From Escherichia phage REP4: DNA of 64,000 nt. Shown here one piece after another: positions 10,960 through 64,000 of this stretch. Under the pieces are notes generated by a model. That model was not told the origin of the DNA and did no database searches. It was given only the letters and a program-made list of their open reading frames with translations. Both the position numbers and the translations under genes were made by a program. Position 1 is the first letter of the stretch, and each line of letters opens with the position of its first letter. The stretch is taken from the sequence record OQ174503.1, one strand, 5' to 3'.

Positions 10960-10967
10960 TATTTATA
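10960..10967 (-). promoter_or_regulatory. T4 late promoter TATAAATA (minus), ~30 nt upstream of soc start
   Basis: Plus strand reads tatttata at 10960-10967. Confidence 0.5.
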
Positions 10968-52148: not shown

Positions 52149-52190
52149 ATATACCCCTTTAGTTAGATAAACCTATTTATAACTTTTGCA

Positions 52191-56532: not shown

Positions 56533-56862
56533 TCAATTAGAAAATAAATTTATCCAAGATTGTTCTTTAATTAAAAATGGCTCAGAATCATATGCCATTA
56601 AACTCTGTGTGATTAGTCCTTTAAAAGGCCCATCAATAAATTCCATAGTAAAATATGGAATTTTATTCATTAGCCGTGCATTAGGAGCCGTGCACAAAAC
56701 TCTGCATCCTTTGAATACGCCTTTTTGTAATTTGTATTGCTTAGGATAAAATTCGCTCAAAATGTTATTTTTTGCTAAAATTTCAAAATGATTCACCAAT
56801 TTATTTTTAATAGTTTTTGGCGAAAAATAGAGATATTCGAAAAGCTGAGTGTCTGTCATCAT
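56533..56862 (-). CDS. Hypothetical protein (109 aa from ATG at 56862)
   Basis: Start overlaps stop of upstream P-loop gene. Confidence 0.45.
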
Positions 56863-57398
56863 TGCATTCCGATTACGAAAAACTGTGGACGAGTAATACC
56901 ACCAATGCAACATTTAATATTACAGCAGCAGTGTACAGTGTCAATATGGACACTATAAATCTTATCCATATCAGGAGATTTGACAGGCTCATCAATTATA
57001 TATAAAATTCGCGAAAGCTTTAAACCTCTGAACTTGCTTCCTTTATTACCGATAAAACTGCGCACAGAATCAGTAAATAAACGAAAACGTATATCATCAT
57101 TAGAATAACGCGAAAATTCCTTTTTAATGTTATTTGCAGAAATTTTAGCGTAAGCTGAAGTATTAGAAAGAACAATAACTGTTCCGCCATCATACAACCA
57201 ATTAGCAGCAAAGTTAGTCACAGCAATTGATTTACCGGATTGACGTCCACCGTCTAGTCGAAGTGTGCAATACTGTTTAAGTAATTCTTCAAATGGCGGG
57301 ATATATTCGTTTTTACAAATTTCTTCTACTCTAGCATCAGAATGGTGTGTAAAAGCATTCATCAGGGATAGATAAGGACCAGTTAAAAATGTTCTCAT
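56859..57398 (-). CDS. Small P-loop NTPase (179 aa) with Cys-rich C-terminus
   Basis: Walker A DGGRQSGKS, Walker B ILYIIDEP, tail HCCCNIKCCIGG. Confidence 0.5.
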   Translation of the reverse strand: MRTFLTGPYLSLMNAFTHHSDARVEEICKNEYIPPFEELLKQYCTLRLDGGRQSGKSIAVTNFAANWLYDGGTVIVLSNTSAYAKISANNIKKEFSRYSNDDIRFRLFTDSVRSFIGNKGSKFRGLKLSRILYIIDEPVKSPDMDKIYSVHIDTVHCCCNIKCCIGGITRPQFFVIGMQ

Positions 57399-57538
57399 TT
57401 CTTCTCTCTAAATTTGGGCCATTCCGTGGCGCATGAATTGTCCATTTCTGTATTTACCCATTACCGCACTTGGGCTCGACCTTATTACAGGTTGGCGGGA
57501 ATCCCTCACAGAATCATGAGGTCCAGGTTGTTCCCATA

Positions 57539-58012
57539 TTATTTGAACGATTTAACGTACTGAATAGAACCTTTACTATTCACGAAAGCGATTTTACCAT
57601 TTTTATTATACATGGTAGCAGTACGCTGATAGCCATAAGTTTGCTTACCAGATTGATAACCAACTAATGCAAAATTATCTTCACCCATTTTATTCTGTTT
57701 AGCGCGAATGCGTTCATGACCATGTGCCATAAGAACCTTAGCATCACCAGTTGCAATGGATCGACGAGTTTTTTCATCTTCAACTGTATTAACAAAGTCG
57801 TCAAATGAATCAAATTTAGCATGAGATTTATTATACAGTTTTCCATCTACTGCATAATTATATCCCTGTACATCCATCTCAACTTCTGTACCATCATCCA
57901 ATACAGCAGTGATTTTCTGTCCTTTTTTAAATTTCAAAAGATCAGTAAAAGATTCAGCAATAATTTGAGAATTAATAGTTGCTTCAGTAATAAATTCTTG
58001 ATATGTTTTCAT
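57539..58012 (-). CDS. Internal-protein-like head protein with capsid-targeting N-terminus (157 aa)
   Basis: N-terminal MKTYQEFITE with I-x-E protease-site pattern; ipII/ipIII locus next to e. Confidence 0.65.
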   Translation of the reverse strand: MKTYQEFITEATINSQIIAESFTDLLKFKKGQKITAVLDDGTEVEMDVQGYNYAVDGKLYNKSHAKFDSFDDFVNTVEDEKTRRSIATGDAKVLMAHGHERIRAKQNKMGEDNFALVGYQSGKQTYGYQRTATMYNKNGKIAFVNSKGSIQYVKSFK

Positions 58013-58028
58013 GTGTATCCTTTAATTT

Positions 58029-58346
58029 TTATTCTTTAGGGAAGTTTTTAGAATATGCATCATAAAGCTTATTTCCAATACGGCGGAAAACTCTAGCCGC
58101 AAAACGATTTTCTGGGTTTTTAATCATGATTTGCATCATATAAGTACCCGCGTCAGAAAGAGCTTCTTCATAGTACCCGTTAATTTCTTTAAGAGTCCTA
58201 CGTTTACCACCAGGACCATCAACAGTGATTTTCCATTTACCTGTAGAAGTGCGACTTGGCGGCTCAACTTGTTCAATCCAGATATAACCGCCTTCTACAC
58301 GTTGTCCTTGGGCAGATTCTGCAATAAATTCTTTAAACGTTTTCAT
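58029..58346 (-). CDS. Internal-protein-like head protein with capsid-targeting N-terminus (105 aa)
   Basis: N-terminal MKTFKEFIAE; adjacent to lysozyme gene. Confidence 0.65.
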   Translation of the reverse strand: MKTFKEFIAESAQGQRVEGGYIWIEQVEPPSRTSTGKWKITVDGPGGKRRTLKEINGYYEEALSDAGTYMMQIMIKNPENRFAARVFRRIGNKLYDAYSKNFPKE

Positions 58347-58417
58347 ATGGTTCCTTTAAATATTTTAATTAGTAACTATGAATATACTATCACAGTTCTA
58401 GGAGAAAGTAAACAACT

Positions 58418-59386
<969 letters not shown>

Positions 59387-59405
<19 letters not shown>

Positions 59406-59875
59406 TCAGTGATAAAATTATTTAAATTTTGAGTATATTTCTTTTCATCAAAAATCTTTTGCTGCCTACGTAACCGCCATGGCATTTCAATGAACACGCA
59501 CCATATTCCTGATAGTACTGCTGCTGTAAAAATATTAACAAGTATAATTAAAAGAATCCAATCTTCCGTTCTGCCTACTGGACTTTCTCCAAAGAAGCAA
59601 AATACAAATGATGTCACAGGAAAACTAATAATATACCACAGAATCATAATCTTATCTGTGAACCAATCAGCGTTCGTTAATTTAGCGCGACCATTATGAA
59701 TACACACGAATTTATCATCTGTTGCAGTAGATGGCTTAACTGGTTGATATCCCATTCTAAACTCCCTAATCAGCAAATTTTTCATATCTTCGGAACAGCC
59801 ATTCCAGTCAACTCTATCAACTGAAATGCCATCATCCCCGTCATCTAAATCATACCAGCGAGTTTTTAAAATCAT
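59387..59875 (-). CDS. Membrane protein, tail-motif paralog family (162 aa from ATG at 59875)
   Basis: Transmembrane helices; C-terminal FITECRKLK. Confidence 0.55.
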
Positions 59876-60234
59876 TTGATTTTCCTGCAATCACTCACAA
59901 ACTCTTTCATTGATTCATTTTCAATATAAGACATGTAGCTATTATATTCTTTTAATTGTATTTTGTAATCCTTTTTTCTTTGCCAATTTATTTTAAAATT
60001 ATCATAATGAAAATATAGCATGGTACCAAAGAATGAAAATAATGAAATAATTTTAGTATAGCGAAGTTCACTCCAAACTTCTATTATATTTACTGTGCCG
60101 TCGATGTTTAAAATAAGACAGTCAATTAATAATCCAAAAAGACTACCCGCAAGAGCTGCAGCCAACGCCACAGCAAAAATTAAAAATGACTCAGGAAGCG
60201 AATATTTGACTTTATTTAGTTTTGGCTTTTGCAT
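59872..60234 (-). CDS. Membrane protein, tail-motif paralog family (120 aa)
   Basis: C-terminal FVSDCRKIK; AAGGAA Shine-Dalgarno. Confidence 0.55.
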   Translation of the reverse strand: MQKPKLNKVKYSLPESFLIFAVALAAALAGSLFGLLIDCLILNIDGTVNIIEVWSELRYTKIISLFSFFGTMLYFHYDNFKINWQRKKDYKIQLKEYNSYMSYIENESMKEFVSDCRKIK

Positions 60235-60608
60235 CGTGATTCCTTAACAAATTTCATAATTTCATCAAATTCATACGCAGCAAGTTTAAGCTGATGTTCC
60301 TTTTTAATCTTTTTACACTGTGCTTTCCAATCACGTACGCGTTTACGATAATGCCTTCCTTGATACCAGTATCCTACCCAATTTACAGGTACTAATAAAA
60401 GTGGAACTATTAATGGAAGAATTAGCATTAACACAAGTATTTCGCCAGAATCAATATCAGTCATAACATCTAAAACACCTCCAATAATCAATAGAATTAC
60501 AAATGATATGAGTATAACAGGACCTATTAATACATCAGTAGGAATTAGCTGGCGCTTTAATTCATACTTCAAAGGTTTACTTGGAAGGTATAGTGATGGC
60601 TTTGACAT
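60216..60608 (-). CDS. Membrane protein, tail-motif paralog family (130 aa from ATG at 60608)
   Basis: C-terminal FVKESRCKSQN; track start is TTG. Confidence 0.5.
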   Translation of the reverse strand: MSKPSLYLPSKPLKYELKRQLIPTDVLIGPVILISFVILLIIGGVLDVMTDIDSGEILVLMLILPLIVPLLLVPVNWVGYWYQGRHYRKRVRDWKAQCKKIKKEHQLKLAAYEFDEIMKFVKESRCKSQN

Positions 60609-61185
60609 ATTCTCTACATTCCTTAACAAATTTTTCTAGTAATAAATCACTTTCAAAATTAGGATTTTCCACTAATTTATCAAAAAGATCATCAACAATA
60701 TTCAAGATATTTCTTTTACTAAGAATACGTTTATTTTCATGCTTCGTTTCAGAATCAACTATAAGAGTAAAGAAATATTTCTTTCCCTGAAATTTTACTG
60801 TAGTATCAATATAGAATAAATTTGACTTTTGTAAGTTACGTTTAAACCATGCGTCACTTAAACTATAAACACCGAGATAATCAAAATCGTCGTTTAAATA
60901 ACAAACTGTCCATTCAGGAGAAATGAAATCAGTAAATTCAACATCAAAATCACATGTCAATAAATGAATTGATTCAATATTGTTAATAAGTATTCCAGGA
61001 CGTATTAAAGACTTTTTACCTCTGGAAAATCTTCCAGAAAGACTTTCATCAGTTTCATATGAAGAACCCCAATAATAATTACGTCCTTCTGCCATACGTT
61101 TAAGAGCATTTAGTAATTGATCTGGAACATCAACCTGTCTTTGGAACTCTTCAAACATTGAATTGAAATCACTTTGCATTTTCAT
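60577..61185 (-). CDS. Hypothetical protein (202 aa)
   Basis: ORF track. Confidence 0.55.
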   Translation of the reverse strand: MKMQSDFNSMFEEFQRQVDVPDQLLNALKRMAEGRNYYWGSSYETDESLSGRFSRGKKSLIRPGILINNIESIHLLTCDFDVEFTDFISPEWTVCYLNDDFDYLGVYSLSDAWFKRNLQKSNLFYIDTTVKFQGKKYFFTLIVDSETKHENKRILSKRNILNIVDDLFDKLVENPNFESDLLLEKFVKECREYVKAITIPSK

Positions 61186-61205
61186 TCCTATTTACTCCAA
61201 GTAAT

Positions 61206-61221
61206 AGGGGCCGAAGCCCCT
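61206..61221 (-). terminator. Intercistronic UUCG hairpin (no clear U-tract)
   Basis: Minus AGGGGC-UUCG-GCCCCU. Confidence 0.4.
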
Positions 61222-61226
61222 TATCA

Positions 61227-61820
61227 TTATTTCAGAGAATTAATGTATTCCTGAACATCGGCAGAAGTAGTTTCAACCCCAGAAATATTACCGTTAAAGG
61301 TTTCAACTCGAGCAAGGGTATCTTCAATATCAACCTTAGTCAGTGCTGCAATTTCAACTACATCATCAGCAGTACTAATTCCAAGGGCATTTGCCGCACG
61401 AGTTTCACGGATATATTCCAATTTAACTGCAAGTTCTTGGCGAGCATCATCTAACTCAACTACTTTCTTAGCGATTTCAATTCGCATTTCGGCATAACCG
61501 TCAGCCTTAGTAGTCAACTGCTCAGCTGTTCGACGATATAGTAAACCAAGTTTAGCATGCATTGTTACATCTTGACCTTCGGAAAGAAGCTTGCGAATTT
61601 CACGCTCTTTTGATTCGGCCTGTCGATTCTTTTCGATAACAAGTTCACGAATACGTTTTTCTTCATTAATAGATTTAACGGAAGCAGTTTTTAGATCTTT
61701 AATTTTATCAAGTAGTTTTGCTGCTGCAGCAGTATACTGTTCTTCAACAGATAGATTTTTAGCCATAGCAGAACCAAGTTTAGTGCGAATAAAATCAACA
61801 ATTTTCTTCAGTGTGTTCAT
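61227..61820 (-). CDS. Coiled-coil protein (197 aa)
   Basis: Long heptad-rich helices; no catalytic motif seen. Confidence 0.55.
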
Positions 61821-62108
61821 AGTATTTCCTTAGGTTAATTAAGATTTAAAATCCATGAGAGTATTATACTCCGGATAGTTTGTAAACTATTTCAACATCG
61901 CCTTTTGCTGCTTTATAACCTTCAGCCCAAGATACAACCGAGTTTTTATCTGAAGATTCAAATTCTGGCATTGGACTTTCATCAATGTTCACACAGTATG
62001 TTTCTTCATTTTCGTCAAACCAAATAGTTAAAGTAGTCATTTATTTCTCCGCTTCTGTGATTGTTTTGATAAGTCTATAATAACACCGTCCTTGGTGTTT
62101 GTACACAC

Positions 62109-62372
62109 TTATTTCATATTATTGAAATATTCTTCTGCGATTTCATCGTTATCGTGGTAAACTTTAGAAGACAGTTTAACATAACCTTCAGCAGTGAACA
62201 TATTAATCACAACTTTTACAGTATACCACTGACCGTCTTCATTACCCATTACTGCGTAAGTTTCAAACATCGGATGGTCAGGACCGATGACTTTAATATC
62301 ATTCACTGTACGACCGAAATCTTCTGAAACGCATTTCATAAAGAAGTTGAACAGTTCGCCGTAATTATCCAT
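62109..62372 (-). CDS. Hypothetical protein (87 aa from ATG at 62372)
   Basis: Start preceded by cassette leader TTGGAGAATGAA-ATG. Confidence 0.55.
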   Translation of the reverse strand: MDNYGELFNFFMKCVSEDFGRTVNDIKVIGPDHPMFETYAVMGNEDGQWYTVKVVINMFTAEGYVKLSSKVYHDNDEIAEEYFNNMK

Positions 62373-62470
62373 TTCATTCTCCAAGTTGTTTTTCTGTATC
62401 AGTAGTTGATAGTTGTATAGTACCACGGAAGAACAGGGATGTAAACAATTTTGTGAAAAAATTTTTAAAA
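62373..62470 (-). repeat. Promoter-leader cassette copy (GTTTAC at 62441-62446, TGGTACTAT -10)
   Basis: Near-identical to copies at 21050 and 47550. Confidence 0.6.
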
Positions 62471-62579
62471 AGTTTTAGGGAATTCTAGGGAAGGGAGGGG
62501 CAATTAAAGGATAGGATAATATATTATAAAGGGTAGAAACTAAATGATGCCTAGAGAGGTCCAGAAAGGCCTAGATATC

Positions 62580-62604
62580 AAAAAGCCCTATCATTTAGAT
62601 AGGG
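62580..62604 (-). terminator. Intrinsic terminator downstream of 62613..63176
   Basis: Minus CCCUAUC-UAAAU-GAUAGGG then C + UUUUU. Confidence 0.6.
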
Positions 62605-62612
62605 ATTTAAAA

Positions 62613-63176
62613 TTATTTACCTAGTTTAGTTATTATAGCTTCTGCGGCAGCTTTTAGTTTAGATGCGGTGTTAATACGATTTTTAATTTCAGTATACGCA
62701 TCGCCAAGAACGTCAAGGCTATCAGAATAAACGCTTACACTATTGCGTTCGCTATTTGAAATAGAACCTTTAGTTTTACGATCAAAATCAATGTACACGT
62801 CTTGAAGATCATGGGCTGCCTTCTTTGCATCATCCAATGCATCAAGAGCTTTATTCAAAGCATTAACGTATTTTTTAGTGTCGAACATATTCTTAGAAAT
62901 TTTAACAGGCGCACGTTCAGGAGTAGCTAAGGCAGATTTAGGAACCTGAGCGCCAGATGCCAGTTTCTTAGAAATTTTGAAAAATGCTTTATTGAATTTA
63001 TTTTCTTGACTCATCGTAAAAGAACTATTATCGATGTTATACATTTCAATAGCTTTAGCTTTCCACTTAAGAAAATCGCCACGGTCTTTTGGGTCCAATT
63101 GGAAGAATACTTTAGTAAGTTCTGCTTCAGATGGTAATTTTGCTGCTTCGGTTAAAAATTCGGCATAAGTTTTCAT
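62613..63176 (-). CDS. Internal-protein-like protein with capsid-targeting N-terminus (187 aa)
   Basis: N-terminal MKTYAEFLTEA. Confidence 0.55.
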   Translation of the reverse strand: MKTYAEFLTEAAKLPSEAELTKVFFQLDPKDRGDFLKWKAKAIEMYNIDNSSFTMSQENKFNKAFFKISKKLASGAQVPKSALATPERAPVKISKNMFDTKKYVNALNKALDALDDAKKAAHDLQDVYIDFDRKTKGSISNSERNSVSVYSDSLDVLGDAYTEIKNRINTASKLKAAAEAIITKLGK

Positions 63177-63266
63177 TTAAAATCCTTGAAATAATCTATC
63201 GGTTGGTTATTAATTATTTATTACTTTGTTATTATCCGTAACAGCGTTATCCGAGTGATTCAAACT

Positions 63267-63293
63267 AAAAAGCCCCAACCTTTCGGTCGGGGC
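63267..63293 (-). terminator. GAAA-tetraloop terminator; 33-nt exact duplicate of 63826..63852
   Basis: Minus GCCCCGACC-GAAA-GGUUGGGGC followed by UUUUU. Confidence 0.7.
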
Positions 63294-63301
63294 TAAGAAT
63301 G

Positions 63302-63775
63302 TTATTTGATTTGTTTAGCAGACCAAATGCGGTCTTTGATGATTTTTTGGAGATCTTCAACATACTCTAGGTCATGAGCATGTGGATTATCTTTGAAACT
63401 ATAGGCACGGGCTAATTTTTGGCCTTCGGTTTTAATTACTAAAAGCTCTTTAAGGATAGCTTCATATTTAGCGATAATTCCTTTAACAATATTTTTTTCT
63501 TGTGCAGCTTTAGGATCTGCTTTAGGAGCAGGTTTACCCGAAGCCTTTGCAAAAGCAGCACCAGTAGCAACTAAACTTTTCCAGGCCATACTAACCGCAT
63601 TTCCTGTAAATCCTTCTGCTTTCATGTCGCGAGCAAACTGGAATCGTGATTCGTCAGAAGCATCTTTATAGGAATATTTACCCGCTGCAATGGCTGCTTT
63701 TGCGACAGCTTGAATTTCGGTGCTAGATGCTTCATTTAACACCGCTTCATTTAAAAATTGAGCATATGATTTCAT
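63302..63775 (-). CDS. Internal-protein-like protein with capsid-targeting N-terminus (157 aa)
   Basis: N-terminal MKSYAQFLNEA; Ala/Lys-rich. Confidence 0.55.
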   Translation of the reverse strand: MKSYAQFLNEAVLNEASSTEIQAVAKAAIAAGKYSYKDASDESRFQFARDMKAEGFTGNAVSMAWKSLVATGAAFAKASGKPAPKADPKAAQEKNIVKGIIAKYEAILKELLVIKTEGQKLARAYSFKDNPHAHDLEYVEDLQKIIKDRIWSAKQIK

Positions 63776-63815
63776 CTTATTTCCTGTTTTAATTCGTGGA
63801 TTTAATATACTACTA

Positions 63816-63823
63816 TATTTATA
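63816..63823 (-). promoter_or_regulatory. T4 late promoter TATAAATA (minus)
   Basis: Plus tatttata at 63816-63823, ~40 nt upstream of ATG 63775. Confidence 0.5.
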
Positions 63824-63825
63824 CT

Positions 63826-63852
63826 AAAAAGCCCCAACCTTTCGGTCGGGGC
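63826..63852 (-). terminator. GAAA-tetraloop terminator (duplicate of 63267..63293)
   Basis: Identical 33-nt sequence ctaaaaagccccaacctttcggtcggggctaag. Confidence 0.7.
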
Positions 63853-63904
63853 TAAGCCTTGCGGCAACCTTGTCGGGGTTCCACCTGCTAAGGCAAGTGT
63901 TTGT

Positions 63905-63996
63905 ACGAAACGCCGGGATTCGAACCCGGTTATTAAGCAGTTGACGCTACTTAATATTTTTAAAAGGCCATATCTCGACCATATCCGAACGTTCCG
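63905..63996 (-). ncRNA. tRNA-like structured RNA (T-arm plus 7-bp acceptor-like stem); possibly a stable small RNA of the tRNA cluster
   Basis: Minus GGUUCGAAUCC T-loop in a 5-bp stem; CGGAACG pairs with CGUUUCG; no canonical D-arm found by hand. Confidence 0.35.
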
Positions 63997-64000
63997 TCAA

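Follow-up and report, generated by a model that had tools for sequence, protein, structure and literature searches.

Internal-protein genes of a T4-like coliphage: Ip4 and Ip10, two unannotated candidate members of the class, and gene 61.1 as an unexpected relative

The T4 internal head proteins IPII and IPIII are packaged, cut by the prohead protease gp21 and injected, and Ip1, Ip2 and Ip3 each inhibit a different type IV restriction enzyme of the GmrSD group (PMC12373910). According to the account given in PMC9026906, the first ten residues of IPIII are enough for the packaging of foreign proteins, and Mullaney and Black (1996), as cited there, assigned residues 4 and 7 of this tag to targeting and residues 8 and 10 to processing. 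IPIII without the tag is active in the cytoplasm (PMC9391042). The tag reads MKTYQEFIAE↓A in both IPII and IPIII, and MKTFKEF...ITE↓A in IPI. Bas37_0260 of phage KarlGJung, which was recognised via the same tag (MKTYQEFIAE↓T), is presented in the HIDEN-SEQ preprint as an inhibitor of the type IV restriction enzyme McrBC (bioRxiv 10.1101/2025.11.20.689424). The characterised inhibitors are dissimilar to one another (PMC12373910). Silas et al. described five more GmrSD systems active against T-even phages, for which no inhibitor is known; the candidates considered were the Ip4 to Ip10 set of 1994, and when ip4 to ip10 were assayed with a series of GmrSD variants, no inhibition was reproducible (PMC12373910). 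As cited there and reflected in database names, Ip4 and Ip10 were named by Repoila et al. (1994, EMBO J 13:4181).

We searched the six-frame translation of the window, that is, the whole 64-kb stretch of DNA analysed, for the tag motif MK[TS][YF].[EQ]F[IL].E and obtained exactly five matches, all at ORF starts on the minus strand, versus 7.6e-5 expected by chance from the window's own six-frame residue frequencies. A looser tag pattern gave no further sites in the same scan. The five ORFs, all listed in the first-pass annotation, were verified (Table 1). An aromatic residue (Tyr or Phe) at position 4 and Phe at position 7 were present in 5/5, and the four larger proteins all had Ile or Leu at position 8, Glu at position 10 and then a small residue (ITE↓A, IAE↓S, LTE↓A and LNE↓A). 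In the 54-aa ORF, the cleavage context is IKE↓D, in which residues 8 and 10 conform and the Asp after Glu is atypical. The first-pass annotation had proposed that the four larger proteins carry a T4-like capsid targeting sequence, and all the genetically mapped residues (4, 7, 8 and 10) turned out to match; the N-terminal similarity also held in the comparison with IPI, IPII and IPIII that had been suggested as a check.

Table 1. Tagged ORFs and neighbouring elements in the 64-kb window (the arrow marks the position after Glu10 of the tag).
Feature	Position	Strand	Tag	Remarks
T4 gene 61.1, 54 aa	13156..13320	(-)	MKTYKEFIKE↓D	named 61.1 in T4 and relatives; tag-like start, gp23-arm-like body
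ip4 (IpIV), 157 aa	57539..58012	(-)	MKTYQEFITE↓A	99% identity to T2 "IpIV internal head protein"
ip10-type gene, 105 aa	58029..58346	(-)	MKTFKEFIAE↓S	96% identity to Ip10 of Enterobacteria phage Pol, CAA84455.1
two exact T4 late-promoter boxes TATAAATA	58926..58946	(-)		upstream of lysozyme gene e
diverged terminator stem-loop	62586..62604	(-)		after 187-aa gene; downstream boundary of insertion versus T4
internal-protein candidate, 187 aa	62613..63176	(-)	MKTYAEFLTE↓A	mature pI 9.46, 14.7% Lys
late-promoter-like AATAAATA, 7/8 match	63215..63222	(-)		38 nt upstream of 187-aa gene ATG
24-nt terminator stem-loop	63271..63294	(-)		between the two candidate genes; identical to that at 63830..63853
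internal-protein candidate, 157 aa	63302..63775	(-)	MKSYAQFLNE↓A	second L-x-E site ends at residue 15
exact late promoter TATAAATA	63816..63823	(-)		40 nt upstream of 157-aa gene ATG
terminator stem-loop AGCCCCGACCGAAAGGTTGGGGCT and T-run	63830..63853	(-)		3' end of rnaC homologue; upstream boundary of cassette pair
rnaC (species 1 RNA) homologue	63890..64000, cut at window end	(-)		~97% identity to annotated T4 rnaC region

Two of the larger genes lie beside the lysozyme gene e. They occupy the locus of T4 ipIII and ipII, with ip10 directly downstream of e, in the position held by ipIII in T4. The ip4 product matched Pfam DUF7412 (E 1e-95) and PHROG 3155, "internal virion protein" (E 1e-101), and carries a further I-x-E site that ends at residue 20; the ip10 product matched PHROG 3966. 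Judged by their sequence identities, these are the already known internal proteins Ip4 and Ip10, the same genes as those of T2 (IpIV) and phage Pol with no difference of substance. Since both were named in 1994, the interval that the first-pass annotation had singled out, 57539-58346, consists of known genes. The window has only five exact late-promoter boxes, every one of them on the minus strand, and the two upstream of e may also serve ip10 and ip4 through read-through. An Rfam search of positions 56800..64000 gave no match, and the structure of the conserved 140-nt spacer after ip4 was not unusual (z +0.59). The window itself belongs to a T4-like coliphage (Tequatrovirus); at the lysozyme locus, its identity to phage G50 is 99.9%.

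The larger proteins resemble T4 IPII and IPIII in their near-identical tag (MKTYQEFIAE↓A in T4), in a size range of 100-193 aa and, for Ip10 and Ip4, in the locus. They also share the basic, lysine-rich mature part: the mature pI is 9.14 for Ip4, 9.60 for Ip10, 9.46 for the 187-aa and 9.40 for the 157-aa protein (9.56 and 9.65 for T4 IPII and IPIII), and lysine makes up 8-15% of the four mature proteins. Unlike these features, the rest of the sequence showed no detectable similarity beyond the tag. Homology of the mature parts to Ip1, Ip2, Ip3 or Bas37_0260 was likewise not found (BLASTP E > 0.1), which says little, because the known inhibitors share none mutually. Bas37_0260 differs further in lying at the ipI locus, in its length of 77 aa and in its unrelated body.

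The other two larger genes have so far been annotated only as "hypothetical": the 187-aa gene in 164/164 phage records carrying it and in the sources of its protein cluster, and the 157-aa gene, carried by 511 records, throughout among the matches listed (40 of 511). Identity among the relatives of the 187-aa protein was always at least 84%. The 157-aa family shows 95-99% identity within Tequatrovirus and occurs also in Mosigvirus and in T4-like phages of Klebsiella and Yersinia; it is fairly conserved, and in this it resembles a fast arms-race gene less than T4 Ip1-3 do. Phage KarlGJung (Bas37) has homologues of both genes, bas37_0243 and bas37_0244, to which the main text of the preprint describing Bas37_0260 makes no reference. 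Apart from DUF7412 and "internal virion protein", both for Ip4, Pfam, NCBIfam and PHROGs gave no function for the tagged proteins, and the literature searched contained no description of the 187-aa and 157-aa proteins as internal proteins, no virion proteomics or injection experiments on them and no mention of a third ip locus. Neither protein bears an Ip name in any source checked, and both were therefore probably outside the ip4-ip10 set of Silas et al. On their sequence features, the two are most likely unannotated candidate members of the T-even internal-protein class, new beside the known Ip4 and Ip10.

In an AlphaFold model (pLDDT 75.5), the 157-aa protein had a helical N-domain joined through a linker to a helical hairpin; Foldseek found no match to it in the PDB (best E 2.5), and the predicted structures offered no hint of function. 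A single-sequence model of the 187-aa protein, of low confidence (pLDDT 59.4), was all-helical with a disordered K/P/A linker. Both proteins belong to PHROG 2280 and have the same predicted layout. BLASTP similarity between them was confined to the tag, and hhalign without the tag gave a probability of 0.14% from a thin profile; a profile of the wider family raised it to 10.6% (E 0.003), for the C-terminal helical hairpins only, which is suggestive at most. Homology of the two bodies was accordingly set aside, despite the shared PHROG.

The basic, lysine-rich composition and the predicted disordered linker would also suit proteins that are packaged but structural, neutralising charge or organising condensed DNA in the head or at ejection, with no role in defence. 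Lysines of T4 internal proteins touch DNA phosphates (PMC3012670), the conservation of the 157-aa family in several genera fits a housekeeping function, and GmrSD was not reproducibly inhibited by ip4 to ip10 (PMC12373910). However, T4 and many of its relatives are devoid of both genes, which must thus be dispensable, and all the internal proteins with a function assigned so far are inhibitors of type IV restriction. We therefore consider a purely structural role of the two candidates unlikely.

Even less probable, in our view, is that the shared N-terminus is merely a mobile 5' module (the RBS and first 30 nt) that recombination has spread and that serves efficient translation, the candidates being cytoplasmic late proteins that are not packaged. 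Such a module could account for a 48-nt DNA repeat family that spans the RBS and the ten first codons in three of the genes, but the 157-aa gene lies outside this family and nonetheless has the peptide pattern. Remote relatives of the 157-aa protein, with 24-51% body identity, keep the tag (MLKFNEFLAE, MINFSDFLNE and MKSFSSFLNE), and the aromatic residue at 4, Phe at 7, Leu or Val at 8 and Glu at 10 persist where identity elsewhere is as low as 24-30%. Retention of the tag pattern while the body drifts points to selection on the peptide, and the ten residues of IPIII that suffice for packaging in the account of PMC9026906 also argue against a role in translation only.

An insertion of 1.2 kb, located between rnaC and e.8 at a site left empty in T4, holds the two candidate genes. 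This is a third site besides the classical ipI and e/ipII-ipIII loci, the second of which harbours ip4 and ip10. The rnaC homologue matched no Rfam family. Three stem-loops bracket the two genes: the terminator at the end of rnaC, present in T4 as a single copy at the same junction; the copy between the genes, in a surrounding 40-nt repeat with 95% identity to the upstream one; and the diverged copy. An exact late-promoter box precedes the 157-aa gene and gene e, a 7/8 match precedes the 187-aa gene, and 61.1 has none. A one-mismatch scan for late promoters was uninformative (212 matches versus 220 expected); the distance from AATAAATA to the ATG resembles that of the exact box before the neighbouring 157-aa gene, and this element, not an exact box, may serve the 187-aa gene as a putative late promoter. 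No sigma-70-like promoter was found by scanning in front of either gene. The candidates form two cassettes of the order late promoter, ORF and terminator within this insertion, and the repeated stem-loops probably drive the gain and loss of such cassettes through homologous recombination. The presence of internal-protein genes varies among close relatives: T4 shares the flanking genes but has none of the four larger ones, and in Bas37 the region beside e is free of ip genes.

This arrangement is similar to that of the promoter-early stem-loop (PeSL) cassettes of phages RB49 and phi1 (Arbiol et al. 2010, PMC2839356), which are likewise non-essential ORFs flanked, within a variable region, by copies of a stem-loop terminator of the GGGG...CCCC type, with the presence/absence junctions between close relatives falling at the stem-loop. 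PeSL cassettes, however, have a sigma-70-type early promoter, whereas those in the window have the late promoter TATAAATA. Membership in PeSL was rejected because an early promoter is absent in front of both genes; the window cassettes work like PeSL cassettes, yet are not PeSL by definition.

For all four larger genes, we think it probable on these grounds that the products are internal head proteins which are packaged, cut by gp21 and injected, and which likely act against type IV restriction. By analogy with T4 IPIII, the ten-residue tag would bind the scaffolding core of the assembling prohead, and gp21 would then cut after Glu10. Such a cut would expose AVLNEASSTEIQAVAK in the 157-aa protein, or ASSTEIQAVAK if the second site were cut, and AAK/LPSEAELTK in the 187-aa protein. 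The basic mature protein would stay in the head with the DNA and enter the host with it, and there it would most likely block a nuclease attacking the modified DNA of the phage, with GmrSD-like or McrBC-like type IV restriction enzymes as the most likely targets. The description as injected anti-defence effector candidates, used in the first-pass annotation, is the accepted view of the internal-protein class and would extend to these members by analogy.

The fifth tagged ORF, next to primase, indeed begins with MKTYKEFIKE, as had been noted, and is T4 gene 61.1. It was found in 1432 phage records, Straboviridae-wide, and is nearly invariant rather than hypervariable. It belongs to the early primase operon, has no late promoter and is coupled in translation to 61.2 and 61; its mature part is acidic (pI 5.03), without the basic feature of the class. 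Residues 2-38 of 61.1 align with residues 57-93 of T4 gp23, across the maturation cleavage site (BLASTP E 1e-8), and gp23 was the sole match of the 61.1 family profile among 177,635 PDB sequences (E 1.1e-5). The matched pairs include Tyr4/Phe59, Phe7/Phe62, Ile8/Leu63 and Glu10/Glu65; after Glu10, 61.1 shares the GD-G-N--NI--G-TSGAV---GP arm of mature gp23, whose PDB chain begins at residue 66, one past Glu65. Long forms of 61.1 from three other genera (158-163 aa, versus 54 aa in Tequatrovirus) align with the same gp23 segment (E 4e-8 to 5e-9). They gave no Pfam match, and no remnant of their N-domain was detected in the window, where tblastn returned one weak match (E 0.04). The literature searched contained no discussion of 61.1 or its function.

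Sequence comparison identifies 61.1 as a short paralogue of the gp23 segment that holds the maturation cleavage site and the mature N-terminal arm, not as a classical internal protein, and its apparent targeting sequence as corresponding to the ten residues that end the gp23 propeptide. T4 gp24 has a ten-residue propeptide too, MAKINELLRE↓S. Unlike gp23, 61.1 is a stand-alone 54-aa peptide encoded in the replication cluster and has no capsid fold. The first-pass annotation had placed this ORF with the internal proteins and had described the bodies of the tagged proteins as unrelated to each other. In the former case, the tag stood, but the conserved, acidic and gp23-like body and the early operon did not fit. 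In the latter, all pairwise BLASTP comparisons of the tag-less bodies gave E > 0.1 (five ORFs, T4 IPI/II/III and Bas37_0260/0261), in agreement with the claim at the level of sequence, with two caveats: the PHROG and predicted layout shared by the 187-aa and 157-aa proteins, and the relation of the 61.1 body to the major capsid protein gp23.

Could 61.1 nevertheless be a true internal protein or peptide, targeted by the tag, cut by gp21 after Glu10, and injected or kept as an acidic peptide of 44 residues? The functional tag residues are present, all four of them, Glu10 is aligned with the cleavage-site Glu65 of gp23, and the long forms in KVP40, Acinetobacter and Lw1 phages retain L/V-x-E at the cleavage position; DMVAGDSGGNPENISTGTTSGAVVNK would then be expected in proheads or heads. 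Expression from an early operon with coupled translation and no late promoter, the acidity of the mature part (pI 5.0) and the near-invariance over the 1432 records, which sets 61.1 apart from internal proteins, all argue against this. In addition, the more distant short forms have lost Phe7 (MKSFKEVMNE) or the entire start (MTILQQYLDSLNE), and the residue after the cleavage Glu is Asp, in contrast to the Ala or Ser of known T4 sites. We regard such a fate of 61.1 as doubtful and retain its assignment as a gp23 paralogue.

Of all phage proteins, the internal ones are the first to encounter host immunity, and those with a known function are all narrow-spectrum inhibitors of type IV restriction. 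The present set adds two new members and an unexpected relative to a kind already known. The two proteins encoded at 62613..63775 are fresh anti-restriction candidates, carried by 164 and 511 sequenced phages, among them the BASEL phage Bas37, for which genetic tools exist, and they indicate a third locus hosting genes of the internal-protein type, though no new principle. The kinship of 61.1 with gp23 is a separate small surprise, concerning a gene present in T4 itself and family-wide. Tentatively, 61.1 may represent a gp23-mimic family found across the T4-like phages, which could tune head assembly, as a substrate or competitor of gp21 or of the docking site of the gp23 arm, or serve as a decoy, made early, for capsid-sensing host systems; it might also mark the origin of the internal-protein tag as a detached end of a capsid propeptide.

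A six-frame scan of the window with the capsid targeting motif MK[TS][YF]x[EQ]F[IL]xE gave exactly five matches, all five at the starts of minus-strand ORFs whose coordinates are those of the first-pass annotation, and a looser pattern added none in the whole window. Residue frequencies taken from the window itself predict 7.6e-5 matches by chance. The proposed resemblance to the T4 internal proteins is real, since IPII and IPIII begin MKTYQEFIAE and IPI reads MKTFKEF...ITE. Genetic work has assigned targeting to residues 4 and 7 and processing to residues 8 and 10 (Kuhn and Thomas, PMC9026906); Tyr/Phe4, Phe7, Ile/Leu8, and Glu10 were present in all five ORFs. The observation is confirmed. 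The accompanying claim that the protein bodies are unrelated held at the sequence level: without the tag, pairwise BLASTP comparison of the five window proteins, T4 IPI, IPII, and IPIII, and Bas37_0260 and Bas37_0261 gave no E value below 0.1, but one PHROG holds both the 187-aa and the 157-aa protein, and the body of the 54-aa protein aligns with gp23. Three of the five proteins are identical to Escherichia phage REP4 proteins.

Tagged ORFs, long forms of gene 61.1, and terminator stem-loops
Feature	Coordinates	Strand	Remarks
T4 gene 61.1, 54 aa	13156..13320	-	name and gp23 homology
ip4	57539..58012	-	Pfam DUF7412; PHROG 3155 'internal virion protein'
ip10	58029..58346	-	96% identity with CAA84455.1 ('Ip10', Enterobacteria phage Pol)
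187-aa candidate	62613..63176	-	
157-aa candidate	63302..63775	-	
Terminator stem-loop 1	63853..63830	-	24-nt hairpin AGCCCCGACCGAAAGGTTGGGGCT, identical to the copy at 63294..63271
Terminator stem-loop 2	63294..63271	-	24-nt hairpin AGCCCCGACCGAAAGGTTGGGGCT, identical to the copy at 63853..63830
Terminator stem-loop 3	62604..62586	-	diverged copy
Long 61.1 forms	L009:1183-1659, L010:1165-1641, L011:1174-1665		beside primase

The segment 57400..58950 matched 776 phage records by megablast, nearly all of Tequatrovirus, with Escherichia phage vB_EcoM_G50 at the top (99.9% identity). It holds a lysozyme gene (58418..58912) almost identical to T4 gene e, and the gene order is that of T4: vs.6, vs.7, vs.8, two small genes, e, nudE, e.2 to e.8, and the tRNA region. 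The position of T4 e.7 (111 aa) is taken by an unrelated 58-aa ORF (61864..62040, minus strand; BLASTP E value of 0.064), a further replacement in this variable region.

By homology, the two small genes are Ip4 and Ip10, both already known. The protein cluster of the former carries the names IpIV (T2) and Ip4, its product and the T2 protein share 99% identity, and the neighboring gene is annotated ipIV in RefSeq T2. The names Ip4 and Ip10 are said to date from Repoila et al. 1994. Reviews and Silas et al. 2025 (PMC12373910) cite that work for "at least 10" internal proteins recognized by their signal sequence. The pair occupies the site of T4 ipIII and ipII, with denV absent, whereas phage Bas37 carries denV and no ip gene beside e; this locus is a previously described replacement hot spot. 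A 140-nt noncoding spacer (57399..57538) follows ip4, at a site that in T4 has denV close by. The spacer is conserved in 696 phage records, Klebsiella phages among them, and is unannotated in these. Rfam gave no match to it, and its predicted structure does not exceed that of shuffled sequence (z of +0.59).

The 157-aa and 187-aa genes lie at a third locus, between rnaC and e.8, bracketed by three GC-rich terminator stem-loops (62586..63853, minus strand), of which the two identical ones sit within 40-nt repeats of 95% identity. T4 rnaC matches the stretch upstream of the first hairpin at about 97% identity. The T4 sequence (L002:7100-7560) has one hairpin copy, at the end of rnaC, lacks the intervening 1.2 kb, and joins the hairpin directly to the sequence that follows the third hairpin in the window; compared with T4, the window thus has about 1.2 kb inserted. 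The insertion reads as two promoter/ORF/terminator cassettes, and recombination between the hairpin repeats would be an obvious route for cassette gain and loss. An exact T4 late promoter box, TATAAATA, precedes the 157-aa gene by 40 nt, and AATAAATA lies at the same spacing before the 187-aa gene; no sigma-70-like promoter was found before either. The exact octamer is underrepresented in the 64 kb (5 seen versus about 10 expected by chance). Every copy is on the minus strand, which is the coding one: two before gene e, one before the 157-aa gene, and the others at 10967..10960 and 52181..52174. The cassettes resemble in their working the PeSL cassettes of RB49 and phi1 (PMC2839356) but are not PeSL by definition, because the promoter is late. 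The homologue of T4 rnaC (species 1 stable RNA; 63890..64000, minus strand, cut by the window end) is not annotated in G50, the closest RefSeq genome, and no Rfam family covers it.

By tblastn, 511 phage records hold the 157-aa protein and 164 hold the 187-aa protein; T4 lacks both genes. Both are "hypothetical" in every record among the matches listed and in the protein-cluster sources and belong to PHROG family 2280, of unknown function; no internal-protein annotation of either was found among these matches, cluster sources, and PHROGs. In each, Glu10 of the tag is followed by a small residue, the mature pI is 9.4 to 9.5, and Lys makes up 14 to 15% of residues; so far as sequence tests go, both candidates pass for the internal-protein class. 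Among 1.84 billion representatives scanned in full with HMMER, only 13 belonged to the 157-aa family. Remote relatives, with body identities of 24 to 51%, still start with MLKFNEFLAE, MINFSDFLNE, MKSFSSFLNE, or ..SFNEFLLSE; since the tag is kept while the body drifts, the decapeptide is selected as a peptide and not merely carried as DNA. For the 187-aa protein, no relatives were found below 84% identity. In relatives of the 157-aa protein from metagenome contigs (proteins P0088, P0087, and P0086), the resemblance to the family is confined to the final 30 residues or to the N-domain, joined to unrelated sequence; such chimeras suggest recombination inside the gene. The Klebsiella and Yersinia phage versions have the same N-domain and a different C-terminal domain. 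The two candidates are predicted to have the same architecture, with a small helical N-domain and a long helical hairpin joined by a disordered Lys/Pro/Ala linker; their profile comparison reached a probability of no more than 10.6%, or 0.14% with a thinner profile. For the better of the two structure models, that of the 157-aa protein, Foldseek found no PDB match.

The internal-protein reading held for four of the tagged ORFs and probably does not extend to the 54-aa one, T4 gene 61.1, on account of its gp23 paralogy, its acidity (the mature part would have a pI of 5.0), and its early-operon position. The gene starts one base past the 61.2 stop, with its ribosome-binding site within 61.2, and ends two bases ahead of the primase start; the exact-box scan of the window found no late box before it. 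It occurs in 1432 phage records (tblastn), including Klebsiella, Acinetobacter, Aeromonas, and Vibrio phages, with an almost invariant body, EDMVAGDxGGNPxNIASGTTSGAVVNKGPEQIP, and nine variable first residues (MKSFKEVMNE, MTILQQYLDSLNE). Residues 2 to 38 aligned with residues 57 to 93 of T4 gp23 (gene 23, L008:3446-5011; BLASTP E value of 1e-8), and the family profile, compared with every PDB sequence, matched only gp23 (E value of 1.1e-5). Glu10 aligns with the cleavage-site Glu65, because the PDB chain of mature gp23 begins 65 residues into the full chain, and the counterparts of Tyr4, Phe7, and Ile8 are Phe59, Phe62, and Leu63. The primase-adjacent gene of KVP40, Acinetobacter phage Berthold, and phage Lw1 encodes 158 to 163 aa, of which the T4-type peptide matches the C-terminal third. 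All these long forms align to that gp23 segment and have L/V-x-E at the cleavage position or adjacent to it. These alignments identify 61.1 as a paralogue of the gp23 stretch made up of the maturation site and the N-arm of the mature protein, and its "targeting sequence" is the counterpart of the gp23 propeptide end. The label "major capsid domain-containing protein" in some database records fits this homology; no discussion of 61.1 was found in the literature searched. It is a different object from the other four tagged proteins.

The principle of tagged internal proteins was already known in the 1990s, and good documentation now exists for an anti-restriction role of the class. The GmrSD of strain CT596 is inhibited by T4 Ip1, and two other GmrSD variants are inhibited by Ip2 and Ip3, one each; there is no cross-protection, and Ip4 to Ip10 showed no reproducible inhibition of the variants tried (PMC12373910). 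IPIII lacking the tag still acts in the cytoplasm (PMC9391042). According to the main text of a preprint (bioRxiv 10.1101/2025.11.20.689424), a tagged Bas37 protein at the ipI locus inhibits McrBC; that text does not mention bas37_0243 and bas37_0244, the Bas37 homologues of our two candidates. What is new is modest: a pair of unannotated candidates at a third locus of cassette-like structure, and 61.1 as a mimic of the cleavage region of the capsid protein. Judged by class membership, the four window proteins most likely inhibit a nuclease that attacks glucosyl-hydroxymethylcytosine DNA.
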